Part shown: piece after piece, positions 218 to 58,353 of the stretch
Numbering within the stretch: the stretch's first letter is position 1
Layout: the number at the start of each line of letters is the position of its first letter
From: Eledone cirrhosa
Lineage: Eukaryota
Assembly: GCA_964016885.1 (NCBI GenBank)
Contig: OZ024745.1
Location: 114,204,001 to 114,268,000 of the forward strand
Length of the DNA stretch: 64,000 bases
Direction of reading: 5' to 3'
Made by a program: the position numbers and the translations under genes
The notes under the pieces: generated by a model
The model's input: the letters and a program-made list of their open reading frames with translations, nothing else
What the model was told of the DNA's origin: nothing
The model's database searches: none

Positions 218-309
218 CAATTTCGTATTTCGAAAGCCGTAGCTATGCGAACACCGGGGGGGGGGGGCTAACGCCCTCTGGTGTTGTCCAGCAGAAGCAA
301 GTGAGACAA

Positions 310-351
310 CCGTCTATGCATTTCAGGCTTAACTGGCCTTCGTCAGGACGA
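310..351 (-). ncRNA. type I minimal hammerhead ribozyme
   Basis: Minus strand: tcgtc CTGACGA aggc-cagttaa-gcct GAAA t-gc-a TA gacgg. Intact core, 4-bp stem II, palindromic ATGCAT stem III, AUA triplet. Confidence 0.85.
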
Positions 352-585
352 CCCCCACACTGCTCTGCGACTGCTGGACTTGAAAACAGCCGAGAACATA
401 TAGTTGTCTCGTCTGTGTAAATAAGGAGATTAATCTCATTTGCATATGAAGCTGCATAAGTTGGCTCAACTTATAATAGAAAAAATAGGATTTCGCTTCA
501 AGCATAGCTTTATACAATATGTATAGAAATTTCGTATTTCGAAAGAAATACAATTTTAGGAAGCCGTCGCAAAGCAGTGGGAGGG

Positions 586-629
586 ATCGTCCTGACGATG
601 GCCAGTCAAGCCTGAAATGCATAGACGGT
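586..629 (+). ncRNA. type I minimal hammerhead ribozyme (inverted copy)
   Basis: atcgtc CTGACGA tggc-cagtcaa-gcct GAAA tgca TA gacggt. U-U mismatch at the base of stem II. Confidence 0.75.
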
Positions 630-781
630 TGTCCCCCTTGCTTCTGCTGGACAACACCAGAGGGCGTTAGCACCCCGGTGTTCGCATAGCTACGGCTTCC
701 TAAAATCGTTTTTCTTTCGAAATACGAAATTTCTATACATATTGTATAAAGCTATGCTTGAAGCCAAATCCTATTTCTTTC

Positions 782-905
<124 letters not shown>

Positions 906-1294
906 GTGTGTATATACATATATCTCATACATATCTCATGCCACACATATATGTATATTTATATATATTAGGATTGGTGCTCTGAAATATACATGTATAG
1001 TATACATGTATAGTATATGTATACATGCATAGTATACATGTATACATGGTGCTCTGAAGTATACATGTATAGTATATTTGGTACATTAATATTAGATTAT
1101 TAATACAGTATATTAATAATCTAATGTAGATTATTAGATACGGTATATTATCAAAGATACTATACATTCATTCATGTATACATCGCTATTTCAGACCACC
1201 AATCCTAATACCTAATTTTTGCTGGACAGGCAATCGCTCTGTATAATCAGCTCCTCATTATTACTGGAATTCTATAATAATCCAGCTTCTAAAT

Positions 1295-1385
1295 TTTTCG
1301 GCGGAAGTAGGGGAGTATGTGGCTCTGATGAACGCCAACTAGCGTGAAACAGACTGTCAGCTTCTCTCCCTTCTTTCGCCGAAAA
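1295..1385 (+). ncRNA. full-size type I hammerhead ribozyme with GUC cleavage site
   Basis: ggct CTGATGA(1325-1331) acgc-caacta-gcgt GAAA cag-a-ctg TC(1358) agct. Stem I extends beyond an internal loop: ttttcggcggaagtaggggag pairs with ctcccttctttcgccgaaaa. Confidence 0.9.
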
Positions 1386-1667
1386 TAAGTAAGTGACATA
1401 GTCACTACTTTAAAACTGATAGCGTATGATCTTCTAAATGTTTTAAATTAAACATACGGTATATTTCAAAATATACTATACATACATTCATATATATGTA
1501 TAGAGAGAGAGAGAGAGAGATTTTGAGTTTATGTTGGTTGTATACCAACACCTCAGTATGCAGGCTGGAGCACTCGACGAAGTGCGCAGGTTGGTTTGGT
1601 TACTCCGGAGTAATGTAAAATAAAGTTAAATAAAAAGTCAAATGATTAAAATTTAGCTTCGTTTATT

Positions 1668-1722
1668 ACTGCTATATATATTTCAGTGACAGCCATCTTT
1701 GGCTGTGACCTCTTCAGGCAGT
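1668..1722 (-). ncRNA. type I minimal hammerhead ribozyme, copy 1
   Basis: Minus: actgc CTGAAGA ggtcacagcca-aaga-tggctgtcact GAAA t-atat-a TA gcagt. Confidence 0.85.
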
Positions 1723-1889
1723 TTGATTATATGATTCCAGTTCCTCAGTGAAATAACAACCCAACCAGGAACTGGGCATATCAGAGTATTGACAATATTA
1801 TACACCTCAACAACATATGTACTTGTCTATACCACACTAATTCAAACTGCCTGAAGAGGTCAGATGATTAAAATTTAGCTTCGTTTATT

Positions 1890-1944
1890 ACTGCTATATA
1901 TATTTCAGTGACAGCCATCTTTGGCTGTGACCTCTTCAGGCAGT
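1890..1944 (-). ncRNA. type I minimal hammerhead ribozyme, copy 2
   Basis: Same sequence as 1668-1722, offset by 222 nt. Confidence 0.85.
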
Positions 1945-2069
1945 TTGAATTAGTATGGTATAGACAAGTACATATGTTGTTGAGGTGTATAATATTGTCA
2001 ATACTCTGATATGCCCAGTTCCTTGTTGGGTTGTTATTTCACTGAGGAACTGGATATATATATATATAT

Positions 2070-4290: not shown

Positions 4291-5625
4291 CATCACTCTC
4301 CCCCTCCCATTCTTCTATGACTCTAGAGCCCTTGCCTAACCCTTTCTTTTCCGTTTTCATAATCACAAAAGACACTTGTATCTTTTTACAATAAATGATA
4401 TAATTATGCCATTTAGCGAAGCGAGATTTTATTTGTTTGACATGGATTGTTTATAAACATGAAGGACTGACTTATTATTTTAATCCGTTATGGAAAAAAA
4501 GCTTCCAGGCACCTTTTATTCATATCAAATCAAATAAATTCTCAATTTTTATGTTAGATTTCAGTAAGTAATTTAGTACAAATCGGGAAACATTGTAGGA
4601 AGTAAGCAGAAATTCAGCTCATTTACATATACAATTAACCGAAACATTTAGATAGAATTACTGCGATATTTTGAAAGTTATGAAATTATCCGGCTAGCAA
4701 TCAAGTGGAACCGACTGTATCGGTTTTAGTTTATTCAATTGTGTGTATTTGGATGTGTGTGTGCGTGTATGAATCATTATGTGTGTTTGTAATGTGTGTG
4801 TGCTTTTGTGTGTGCTTGTGTGTGCACATGCATGTTTGTTTAGTCATGGGAATATATAAGACAATCAGTTTTCTACTTATCTCAATACGTTGGGTTATAT
4901 ATATATGTCTGTATTTATGTTTATATAGTAAGTAATAGATTCAATTTATTTTTGTCCATCTACGTATGTATGTACCTGCTTACAGTTATGATAAATATGT
5001 TTTCTTTGTGTGTGCGCTTGCATATGTCTGTGCATAAATGTGTGTGCATACATGTGTGTGTGCATGTATGTGTGTATAAATATCTGTATGTGTGTGTGTG
5101 CGTGTATGTATGTGTGTATTTTTAGTGGGCGTATCAATTCCCTCTACTACGTTTTAATTTCCATTTAATAATATCTTCTGTTAGTACTTAGTAAAGCGTG
5201 ATGATAAAACCAGAGCCGGATTTAGATATGATAATGCCCTAAGTGCCCGTTTTTGCAATTGCTCACATAGAATAAGGCTATGTAACAACAGAATTCAAAT
5301 AAATTATACATACAAGTACGTTTAAATATTATCAAATGCATGCATACATTAATAAAATTTCAAAACTTAGAGCAAATATTATGAAAATGCAGCAAGCCAT
5401 ATTATCATAATTAGAAACAAAAACCCCACCTAAGTGACAAAACAAGAATAATTAAATATAATACAAATTTATATTTAAATACAACGGAACCCTAAAAACT
5501 TATGTACGAAATTATATTTTCAAATAAATGCACATCATTTGTTAACGTGAATTGTTGTTAATCAAGATAATTGCTTCAAATTACCGTATTTCCCGGCAAG
5601 TTTGACAACCAAAAATTTGAATAAA

Positions 5626-56156: not shown

Positions 56157-56561
56157 TGTTTGCTATCACTCCCTCTCACCAAAATCATTTCTTATTGACA
56201 TACAAATCTTTCTGCTGTGCTCTCTGTTCTCATTTCTCATACTCTTCTATTACTCTCTCCAACTCTCTCTCTCTCACACTCTCCCTCTCTCTCTCTCAAA
56301 CTCTCTCGCATTCCTCTCTCGCATTCCTCTCTCACTCTCTCGTTTATATCGACCTCAGAAGAATAAAATGCAAAGTTGACCATGGCAGGATTTGAACTCA
56401 GCGATTAAAGGTCCATAACAAATACTGCTGAGCATTTGTTTGATGTTCTAACAACTCTGTCAATCTTGTTAGAATGTAATAATTGCTTCTACATTTGGCA
56501 CAAGGCTAGCAATTTGAAGAGTAGGGGAAAGTTGATTCAATCAACTCTCATAACTCTAGCC

Positions 56562-58236
56562 ATGTGCTACCACTACAGCCGTGAAGCATGGTGTTTGATG
56601 TGCTACCACTACAGCCGTGAACCATGGTGTTTGATGTGCTACCAATATAGCCATGAACCATGGTGTTTGATGTGCTACCAATATAGCCGTGAACCATGGT
56701 GTTTGATGTGCTACCAATATAGCCGTGAAGCATGGTGTTTGATGTGCTACCAATATAGCCGTGAAGCATGGTGTTTGATGTGCTACCAATACAGCCGTGA
56801 AGCATGGTGTTTGATGTGCTACCACTACAGCCGTGAAGCATGGTGTTTGATGTGCTACCAATACAGCCGTGAAGCATGGTGTTTGATGTGCTACCACTAC
56901 AGCCGTGAACCATGGTGTTTGATGTGCTACCAATACAGCCGTGAAGCATGGTGTTTGATGTGCTACCAATATAGCCGTGAACCATGGTGTTTGATGTGCT
57001 ACCACTACAGCCGTGAAGCATGGTGTTTGATGTGCTATCAATATAGCCGTGAAGCATGGTGTTCGATGTGCTATCAATATAGCCGTGAAGCATGGTGTTT
57101 GATGTGCTACCAATATAGCCGTGAAGCATGGTGTTTGATGTGCTACCAATACAGCCGTGAAGCATGGTGTTTGATGTGCTACCAATACAGCCGTGAAGCA
57201 TGGTGTTTGATGTGCTACCAATATAGCCGTGAAGCATGGTGTTCGATGTGCTATCAATATAGCCGTGAAGCATGGTGTTTGATGTGCTACCAATACAGCC
57301 GTGAAGCATGGTGTTTGATGTGCTACCAATATAGCCGTGAAGCATGGTGTTCGATGTGCTATCAATATAGCCGTGAAGCATGGTGTTTGATGTGCTACCA
57401 ATACAGCCGTGAAGCATGGTGTTTGATGTGCTACCAATATAGCCGTGAAGCATGGTGTTTGATGTGCTACCAATACAGCCGTGAAGCATGGTGTTTGATG
57501 TGCTACCAATACAGCCGTGAAGCATGGTGTTTGATGTGCTACCACTACAGCCGTGAAGCATGGTGTTTGATGTGCTACCAATATAGCCGTGAAGCATGGT
57601 GTTTGATGTGCTACCAATATAGCCGTGAAGCATGGTGTTCGATGTGCTATCAATATAGCCGTGAAGCATGGTGTTTGATGTGCTACCAATACAGCCGTGA
57701 AGCATGGTGTTTGATGTGCTACCAATATAGCCGTGAAGCATGGTGTTCGATGTGCTATCAATATAGCCGTGAAGCATGGTGTTTGATGTGCTACCAATAC
57801 AGCCGTGAAGCATGGTGTTTGATGTGCTACCAATATAGCCGTGAAGCATGGTGTTCGATGTGCTATCAATATAGCCGTGAAGCATGGTGTTTGATGTGCT
57901 ACCAATACAGCCGTGAAGCATGGTGTTTGATGTGCTACCAATATAGCCGTGAAGCATGGTGTTCGATGTGCTATCAATATAGCCGTGAAGCATGGTGTTT
58001 GATGTGCTACCAATACAGCCGTGAAGCATGGTGTTCAATGTGCTATCAATATAGCCGTGAAGCATGGTGTTCAATGTGCTACCACTACAGCCGTGAAGCA
58101 TGGTGTTCGATGTGCTACCAATATAGCCGTGAACCATGGTGTTTGATGTGCTACCAATACAGCCGTGAAGCATGGTGTTCGATGTGCTACCAATATAGCC
58201 GTGAACCATGGTGTTCGATGTGCTACCAATATAGCC
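56562..58236. repeat. 36-bp minisatellite, about 46 copies
   Basis: Unit ATGTGCTACCAATATAGCCGTGAAGCATGGTGTTTG. It explains the three long repetitive ORFs. Confidence 0.97.
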
Positions 58237-58353
58237 AATCAATCGCCCTCTGATACTATATGATAATGATAAGTAATTTTGAACTCTAAGATAGATCACA
58301 ACAATTATCAGGAATTAGGGTTTTTTTTTAAATTTTCCCTTTCATATTTCCAG

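Follow-up and report, generated by a model that had tools for sequence, protein, structure and literature searches.

A two-armed insertion of a 316-nt hammerhead repeat in Eledone cirrhosa and its likely spread by Penelope-like enzymes

The insertion at 966-1502

We examined a stretch of 64,000 nucleotides (nt) from Eledone cirrhosa (assembly GCA_964016885.1, contig OZ024745.1, positions 114,204,001 to 114,268,000 of the forward strand), referred to here as the window, with all coordinates counted from its first letter. Near its left end, positions 966-1502 constitute a two-armed insertion of a non-coding repeat of about 316 nt, which bears a hammerhead motif and belongs to a family dispersed through the genome. 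The layout is given below, where unit positions follow the numbering of the window and sites 1 and 2 are the two places at which copies of the family recurrently end on their 3' side (see below).

800-905, no strand: (AT)n microsatellite that precedes the insertion and is its likely target tract, read from the sequence
966-1084, minus strand: left arm, an inverted, 5'-truncated and internally duplicated copy of unit ~1149-1210, seen through inverted repeats; its 3' end at 966 equals unit 1210, which is site 2, the end of the tail
1085-1137, no strand: AT-rich spacer of 53 nt between the arms, partly palindromic; no other locus matched it among the matches listed
1138-1502, plus strand: right arm, spanning 1.15 repeats of the 316-nt unit and ending on the 3' side at ~1496-1502, which equals unit 1180-1186 (site 1)
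1264-1285, plus strand: short hairpin of the CTGGAATTC...GAATCCAG type upstream of the hammerhead, present in most subfamily segments shown and paired in the circular fold
1387-1411, plus strand: hairpin AAGTAAGTGAC-ATA-GTCACTACTT, kept in the sampled copies; its first 19 nt are the family anchor
1503-1521, no strand: (GA)n microsatellite that follows the insertion, read from the sequence

A preliminary description of this stretch had reported an imperfect direct repeat at 1138 and 1454, an inverted fragment pairing 966-989 with 1187-1210, and the lack of an open reading frame (ORF). A repeat search recovered the first of these as 1138-1180 and 1454-1496 (offset 316, 86%) and extended the second to a match of 34 nt between 966-999 and 1177-1210 (88%). 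The same search gave a second inverted match, of 1065-1083 with 1149-1167, and a duplication internal to the left arm (975-1004 and 1047-1076, 97%). The inverted fragment, far from being a stray piece, forms the second arm, and the same head-to-head layout recurs at other loci. Homology to 19 other loci starts at 1138 at the earliest and ends at 1488-1502. No stop-to-stop frame of at least 90 amino acids (aa) overlaps 1138-1490, and the GC content of the unit is 36.7%. The predicted 316-nt circle folds with -80.3 kcal/mol, as against -52.9 +/- 3.8 kcal/mol for shuffles (z -7.2), and is 54% paired; much of this stability comes from the hammerhead hairpin itself.

The hammerhead motif

The motif occupies 1294-1386 and is composed of the following elements, all on the plus strand.

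1295-1324: helix I, 5' strand, with a distal helix, an internal loop at 1316-1319 and a proximal part of 4 base pairs (bp) at 1321-1324, from the fold, repeats and covariation
1325-1331: core C3-A9, CUGAUGA (CTGATGA in the DNA), read from the sequence and aligned to the core of the Rfam HH9 model
1332-1335/1342-1345: helix II, ACGC/GCGU, 4 bp with a 6-nt loop CAACUA
1346-1349: core G12-A14 followed by A15.1, GAAA, read from the sequence
1349-1357: helix III, ACAG-A-CUGU, a near-palindrome read from the sequence, paired in 97.5% of cells
1356-1358: GUC, in which C17 is C1358, with cleavage predicted after C1358
1359-1385: helix I, 3' strand, from the fold, covariation and the repeat search

The conserved core of a type I hammerhead is complete, with CUGAUGA, GAA at 1346-1348, the pair A1349-U1357 (A15.1-U16.1) and C1358, and the perfect core, the GUC and the near-palindromic helix III reported earlier all lie where they had been placed. 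As judged from the fold and covariation, three helices surround this core and helix I is open, which is the type I layout. The long helix I with an internal loop was likewise borne out: 1295-1312 pairs with 1368-1385 over 18 nt (89%), the whole helix is about 25 bp long including the internal loop, and this loop sits four base pairs from the core. The 93-nt hairpin at 1294-1386 folds with -43.9 kcal/mol, compared with -23.2 +/- 3.1 kcal/mol for 200 dinucleotide shuffles, none of which was as good (z -6.76). Helix III can be drawn either as 4 bp round a single-nucleotide loop or as 3 bp with a triloop; weak palindromic helices III of this kind have been linked to cleavage as dimers (PMC7229834, PMC4209133).

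The window copy bears minority letters, relative to the family majority, at 1308 (a mismatched position of distal helix I), 1318 (in the internal loop) and 1340 (in loop II, which reads CAACCA in the majority of copies and CAACUA here). All three positions are unpaired, and helix III has just 3-4 bp; the earlier designation of this copy as the most likely active ribozyme in the window is not supported.

Family size, subfamilies and covariation

In the genome (3.0 Gb, 1,796 contigs), the hammerhead stretch drew 2,013 first-look candidates, and the near-full-length matches among the 40 that were scored are 94-97% identical. The exact 34-nt core of the window occurs at 5 places, whereas the majority version of this core, with loop II CAACCA, occurs at 156. 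A 19-mer anchor from 1387-1405 is found at 5,340 places with at most one mismatch, and at none when reversed as a control. The places of the family are dispersed over all large contigs. A sample of subfamilies, consisting of the first 30 anchor places by coordinate, revealed that the flanks are common to several subfamilies, with hammerheads that differ among them as follows.

Type A (the type of the window): CUGAUGA, helix II ACGC/GCGU, helix III ACAG-A-CUGU
Type B: CUGAGGA, helix II AUAC/GUAU, helix III ACAGA-GA-UCUGU, proximal helix I of 6 bp
Types C, D and E: UUGAUAA, with other helices

Thousands of short contigs of the family were also present in three sequencing runs of unknown kind, whose cover is far deeper over 1164-1277 and 1392-1467 than over 1297-1334; this unevenness fits shared flanks combined with exchangeable hammerheads. 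Run X4, which bears a different organism label (B) and is itself of unknown kind, holds two short family contigs, 95-99% and 90-95% alike, with a small word share, and the family may occur in a second species.

Across the subfamilies the hammerheads vary in all three helices by compensatory changes. We assessed this in 18 of 41 segments (40 distinct segments from 46 loci, described below, plus the window's own), which were chosen by hand to represent each type; the rows are therefore related and hand-chosen, and the structure was derived from a single row, the window copy. Within these limits, 86.3% of cells were paired, against 41-52% when the partners were slid, and 19 of 34 pairs had changed on both sides, against 4-10 with slid partners; none of 500 shuffles equalled the observed values. 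In helix II, three of the four pairs had changed on both sides across subfamilies. Given the genome-wide family and the preservation of three helices by compensatory changes, the sequence evidence excludes a chance match as the origin of the motif.

The core itself shows a linked change. In the 40 segments, positions 3 and 8 are C3/G8 in 29, U3/A8 in 10, U3/G8 in one and C3/A8 in none. The segments with UUGAUAA, and hence U3-A8, include L004:2247-2344 (-), L019:1182-1279 (-), and others in L032, L036, L037, L039, L044 and L050. Covariation of this pair to U3-A8 has already been reported for PLE hammerheads of Schistosoma, PLE standing for Penelope-like element (PMC4209133).

These data bear on the possibility that the hammerhead is inert and is kept because the copies are young, the family being a PLE-dependent repeat without self-cleavage. 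The type A copies are 3-6% diverged, so that their intact cores prove little, and PLE families without canonical hammerheads are described as proliferating very well (PMC8557442). What makes an inert motif very unlikely is that subfamilies differing in all three helices nonetheless keep the fold and the core, and that the passage from C3-G8 to U3-A8 is found with both changes in 10 segments and with one change in a single segment. Because the helices differ and yet the fold and core, including this linked pair, are kept, the comparison argues for selection on the hammerhead fold across subfamilies, and on the ribozyme over a longer time than the type A copies record. The subfamilies offer a natural covariation series for testing which features of the hammerhead matter in vivo.

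Insertion footprints in 46 loci

After removal of three duplicates, 46 non-redundant loci (18 found with the hammerhead stretch and 28 with the anchor) were compared with 1138-1502 of the window. These yielded 68 blocks of at least 80 nt, of which 36 end at unit ~1176-1192 (=1479-1502), 26 at ~1200-1221 and 6 elsewhere, thereby defining two fixed 3' end sites about 30 nt apart, site 1 and site 2. The 5' ends are scattered, as expected of variable 5' truncation; a part of this scatter, at ~1313-1382, is artefactual and detracts from the reading favoured below, since the type A query fails to align with the hammerheads of other subfamilies. Block lengths range from 82 to 737 nt, with 22 of the 68 exceeding one unit and one exceeding two; the longest spans 2.3 units.

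A (TA)n tract of at least 16 nt lies within 40 nt of 31 of the 46 insertions, and on both sides in 11, compared with 7% of 40-nt stretches drawn at random from the same loci and 1.5% of the rest of the window. In 23 cases a minus arm is followed by a plus arm within 60 nt, forming a head-to-head pair. Where both arms end at a fixed site, they use different sites in 15 of 16 pairs (P 0.00026 if the arms were independent), and the window locus obeys the same rule, its left arm stopping at site 2 and the right one at site 1. Both sites lie in TA-like sequence of the element (...CATTCAT|GTATA... and ...CCTAATA|CC...), which makes priming through microhomology with (TA)n DNA plausible. The result is a clean and countable footprint, consisting of two fixed 3' start sites, one per arm, a (TA)n neighbourhood and arms longer than one unit. 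It links a hammerhead repeat that encodes no protein to the integration machinery of Penelope elements far more specifically than co-occurrence does, and it furnishes a concrete prediction for an in vitro system of PLE retrotransposition.

Tandem copies are present on a small scale. Same-strand pairs spaced by 314-318 nt number four among the 100 anchor places listed, and none of the 100 core places listed shows this spacing; locus L013 carries two type A hammerheads 316 nt apart. The 316-nt periodicity, the partial tandems and a few dimers would fit a satellite or tandem repeat that unequal crossing-over or segmental duplication has spread, with the hammerhead as a passenger, as was first thought for satellite 2 of the newt. 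We regard this as extremely unlikely, given that single copies are scattered over all large contigs, that the longest copy in the 46 loci spans 2.3 units, and that two fixed 3' sites are combined with varying 5' ends, adjacency to (TA)n and the rule of one site per arm, none of which is expected from unequal crossing-over.

The footprint equally bears on a SINE-like origin (SINE, short interspersed element), in which a repeat with an internal promoter for RNA polymerase III is copied by a long interspersed element (LINE). Schistosoma Sm-alpha is such a SINE-like element copied by a LINE. The family here is also short, non-coding, present in high copy number and 5'-truncated, and LINE-type zf-RVT ORFs occur in the flanks of 2 of the 46 loci. 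Nevertheless, it has no tRNA-like head (ARAGORN found 0 genes in 900-2100), Rfam scans gave no match to tRNA, 5S or 7SL, and it lacks a poly(A) tail; on the 3' side, copies terminate at TA-like sites within the unit. LINE-type insertion, moreover, is described as showing neither partial tandems and inverted arms nor a tail of ~30 nt at one end (PMC8557442), and an origin of the SINE kind is accordingly very improbable.

We also considered whether a pile-up of 5' ends at the cleavage site could serve as a footprint of self-cleavage. As counted by eye, nine copies (L023, L026, L027, L029, L030, L035, L043, L044 and L051) start 5-24 nt after C17, inside the 3' strand of helix I, and none starts at +1. 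Such starts could reflect trimmed cut templates, but stalling of a polymerase at the long helix I hairpin would serve equally well, and the anchor by which the copies were sampled lies just beyond this region; the excess is not reliable and was rejected as evidence.

Penelope-like neighbours and a candidate helper

The flanks of the loci were scanned with Pfam using 65 stop-to-stop frames of at least 110 aa, after dropping frames in which three residues made up more than half of the sequence (read-through of microsatellites). Domains were found in one GIY-YIG frame (in L030), two frames of the LINE-type zf-RVT kind already mentioned, and three pieces of a DDE transposase, all at one locus. One of the 46 loci has a GIY-YIG ORF within 1.5 kb.

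These data allow us to weigh a further possibility, namely that the locus is a remnant of the pseudo-long terminal repeat (pLTR) of an autonomous PLE that has lost its ORF here. PLE pLTRs are reported to carry hammerheads and to form partial tandems and inverted copies (PMC4209133, PMC8557442), the genome is rich in PLE copies, and the GIY-YIG ORF of L030 lies close to a family fragment. In L030, however, the two are separate insertions, parted by a (TA)n tract of ~55 nt and sharing nothing else. Self-repetition of the 316-nt unit accounts for every copy in the 46 loci, with no homology running into coding sequence, and three PLE loci of 8 kb match the unit at its TA-like tail only (at most 54 nt) and carry a different hammerhead-like motif, which in L064 lies ~40 nt upstream of the long frame. 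The preliminary description had held that a family whose copies all abut PLE ORFs would be an ordinary pLTR; as none of the 46 loci has a copy continuous with a Penelope ORF, we take the family not to be a pLTR, and a pLTR remnant with its ORF lost is improbable. As a separate observation, the hammerhead-like motif of the PLE shares the ACAG/CUGU helix III with that of the 316-nt repeat.

The PLE is itself abundant. Its candidate helper ORF, of 273 aa with a GIY-YIG domain (Pfam E 3.5e-5), drew 72,127 first-look candidates in the genome, and all 141 that were scored had E 1.3e-143 or better; with the place of the query itself set aside, these copies are 87-92% identical. Members of this PLE family include L064:2978-5254 (-) and L030:533-1351 (-), with the GIY-YIG block at the C-terminus. 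One copy runs for 759 aa without a stop, and open frames extend up to 834 aa, a figure that can be inflated given that the 834-aa frame partly crosses a TA microsatellite. In a large protein collection, relatives of the 759-aa protein bear GIY-YIG, HTH_animal and DUF8422, and the top relative with a name is a hypothetical protein of a bivalve (39% identity). A comparison of the PLE ORF with PDB sequences gave nothing above chance level. The PLE copies examined adjoin TA-rich tracts, the same kind of microsatellite as is found beside the 316-nt repeat. On these sequence features, the abundant GIY-YIG PLE is a plausible candidate for the helper of the family.

A region at C2:70300300-70306600, in which two inverted core matches lie 4.7 kb apart, was tried as a possible PLE pair and set aside, as it holds no reverse transcriptase or GIY-YIG ORF.

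Proposed mechanism

Taking the footprints and the neighbouring elements together, we consider it likely that the hammerhead repeat at 966-1502 was made when PLE enzymes copied the RNA of the repeat into a (TA)n microsatellite. Copies with two tandem hammerheads, such as that in L013, would be transcribed, and their hammerheads would cut after C17, with the possibility that two hammerheads pair in order to cut because helix III is short and nearly palindromic. A host RNA ligase would then circularise the unit-length RNA, by analogy with what has been shown for retrozymes of other animals. With its reverse transcriptase and endonuclease, the PLE would use cut (TA)n DNA to prime complementary DNA (cDNA), which would begin at the two TA-like sites of the RNA and at times make more than one turn of the template.

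By itself, the window locus could not give rise to a circle. It had been put forward as a monomer-plus remnant of a circular-RNA retrozyme, and of this proposal the hammerhead, the 316-nt unit, the dispersed non-coding family and the class were upheld; the release of a circle from this locus was not, since it holds a single hammerhead and could therefore not free a 316-nt unit by two cuts, allowing at most one self-cut.

A more specific form of the mechanism, which we put forward tentatively and with some doubt, is that the footprints record a two-ended rolling-circle reverse transcription, wherein a Penelope-type endonuclease cuts the (TA)n tract and both DNA ends prime on one circular retrozyme RNA, each at its own fixed site. 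Each end may then circle more than once, which would give head-to-head arms of variable length and a tail on one side. If true, this would explain the long-puzzling tandem, inverted and tail structure of Penelope-like insertions.

Several observations weigh against copying of a retrozyme RNA by PLE enzymes. At the motif, Rfam matched no family at its gathering score in the whole window, and the best hammerhead model under permissive thresholds, Hammerhead_HH9 (RF02275), scored 23.9 bits where gathering requires 52 (E 0.002 over 801 nt and 0.00028 over 111 nt); the motif resembles this model in its core, its 4-bp helix II with a CAA-rich loop, and its helix I with an internal loop and distal helix, and differs in having a shorter helix III and proximal helix I. 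No arrays of three or more units were seen in the 46 loci, whereas the published definition of the class stresses long tandem arrays. Linear multimeric transcripts or template switching, instead of circles, could account for the arms that exceed one unit. Pfam assigned no family to the 759-aa or the 834-aa frame and found no reverse transcriptase domain in the 759-aa ORF, whose nature as a reverse transcriptase rests on a YRDD motif read by eye and on look-alike clusters with RVT_1. Finally, the difference in hammerhead-like motif and the restriction of shared sequence to the TA-like tail, noted above for the PLE loci, also count here. Even so, each of the four alternatives discussed above (inert hammerhead, satellite, SINE-like element and pLTR remnant) is less likely than a PLE-mobilised retrozyme.

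Other repeats in the window

Two further repeats with hammerhead-like motifs flank the insertion. The first forms an inverted pair at 222-345 (-) and 560-700 (+), with the motif CUGACGA / CUGAUGA ... GAAA-UGCAU-A, and its palindromic, loopless helix III corresponds to the minimal PLE-type layout; a search with 560-690 gave 1,838 first-look candidates in the genome, and those of near-full length among the 40 scored are mostly 91-98% identical. The second, at 1523-2050 (-), directly adjoins the right arm and holds a pair of hammerhead-like motifs with cores at 1717 and 1939 (a spacing of 222 nt), as well as an inverted partial copy. Its motif combines CUGAAGA, a 10-bp helix II, GAAA-UAUAUAU-A and a GCAG helix I, and 1640-1760 has 369 first-look candidates. 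Elsewhere, at 56409-58314, long open frames of 614, 588 and 492 aa overlap on both strands in a region that looks repetitive or of low complexity.

Comparison with known systems

Animal non-LTR retrozymes (LTR, long terminal repeat) are described as non-coding, low-GC repeats of 150-450 bp with type I hammerheads, without an LTR, primer-binding site (PBS) or polypurine tract (PPT), in genomes where PLEs coexist (Cervera and de la Pena 2020, PMC7229834), and those of axolotl and mussel were circularised by RtcB in vitro (PMC7229834). Dispersed monomers beside multimers, and a kinship of retrozymes with PLE pLTRs in Xenopus, are reported in a recent preprint (Li, Clavereau and Pollet 2026, 10.64898/2026.07.22.740005). 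The present family resembles these elements in its type I hammerhead, its unit of 316 nt with 36.7% GC and no ORF, its thousands of copies, the PLEs in the same genome, and the occurrence of scattered monomers with short multimers; it is also without an LTR, PBS or PPT as listed, although no search aimed at a PBS or PPT was made. It differs in having no long arrays, with 2.3 units as the maximum among the 46 loci, and in the two fixed 3' sites, one per arm, and the (TA)n neighbourhood, which are absent from those parts of the published descriptions that were considered.

Satellite 2 of newt and axolotl, of about 330-350 bp, is similar in unit length and in having a type I hammerhead whose helix III is weak; the satellite 2 hammerhead is reported to cut better as a dimer (PMC7229834). 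As compared by description, the very long arrays and 10^5 copies of the salamander repeat have no sign here. With PLE hammerheads as published (PMC4209133) the family shares a short, near-palindromic helix III, whereas the minimal ones have a helix I of 4-5 bp in contrast to the long helix I here. Furthermore, unlike a PLE, the unit has no ORF, and it shares only the TA-like tail with the abundant PLE of this genome.

The insertions agree with those of PLEs, which are described as highly 5'-truncated, with partial tandems and an adjacent inverted 5'-truncated copy, a tail of 30-40 bp that is often at one end only, and a bias towards microsatellites including (TA)n (Craig et al. 2021, PMC8557442). 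All five features are present here, and the published PLE tail is in this family the pair of 3' sites, spaced by about 30 nt and used one per arm. It is because the footprints match published Penelope-like insertions that retrozyme is the right class, and the family thus appears to be an animal non-LTR retrozyme. Given that retrozymes and PLE-associated hammerheads are already well described, the element itself adds to a known class and is an ordinary one for an invertebrate-type genome.

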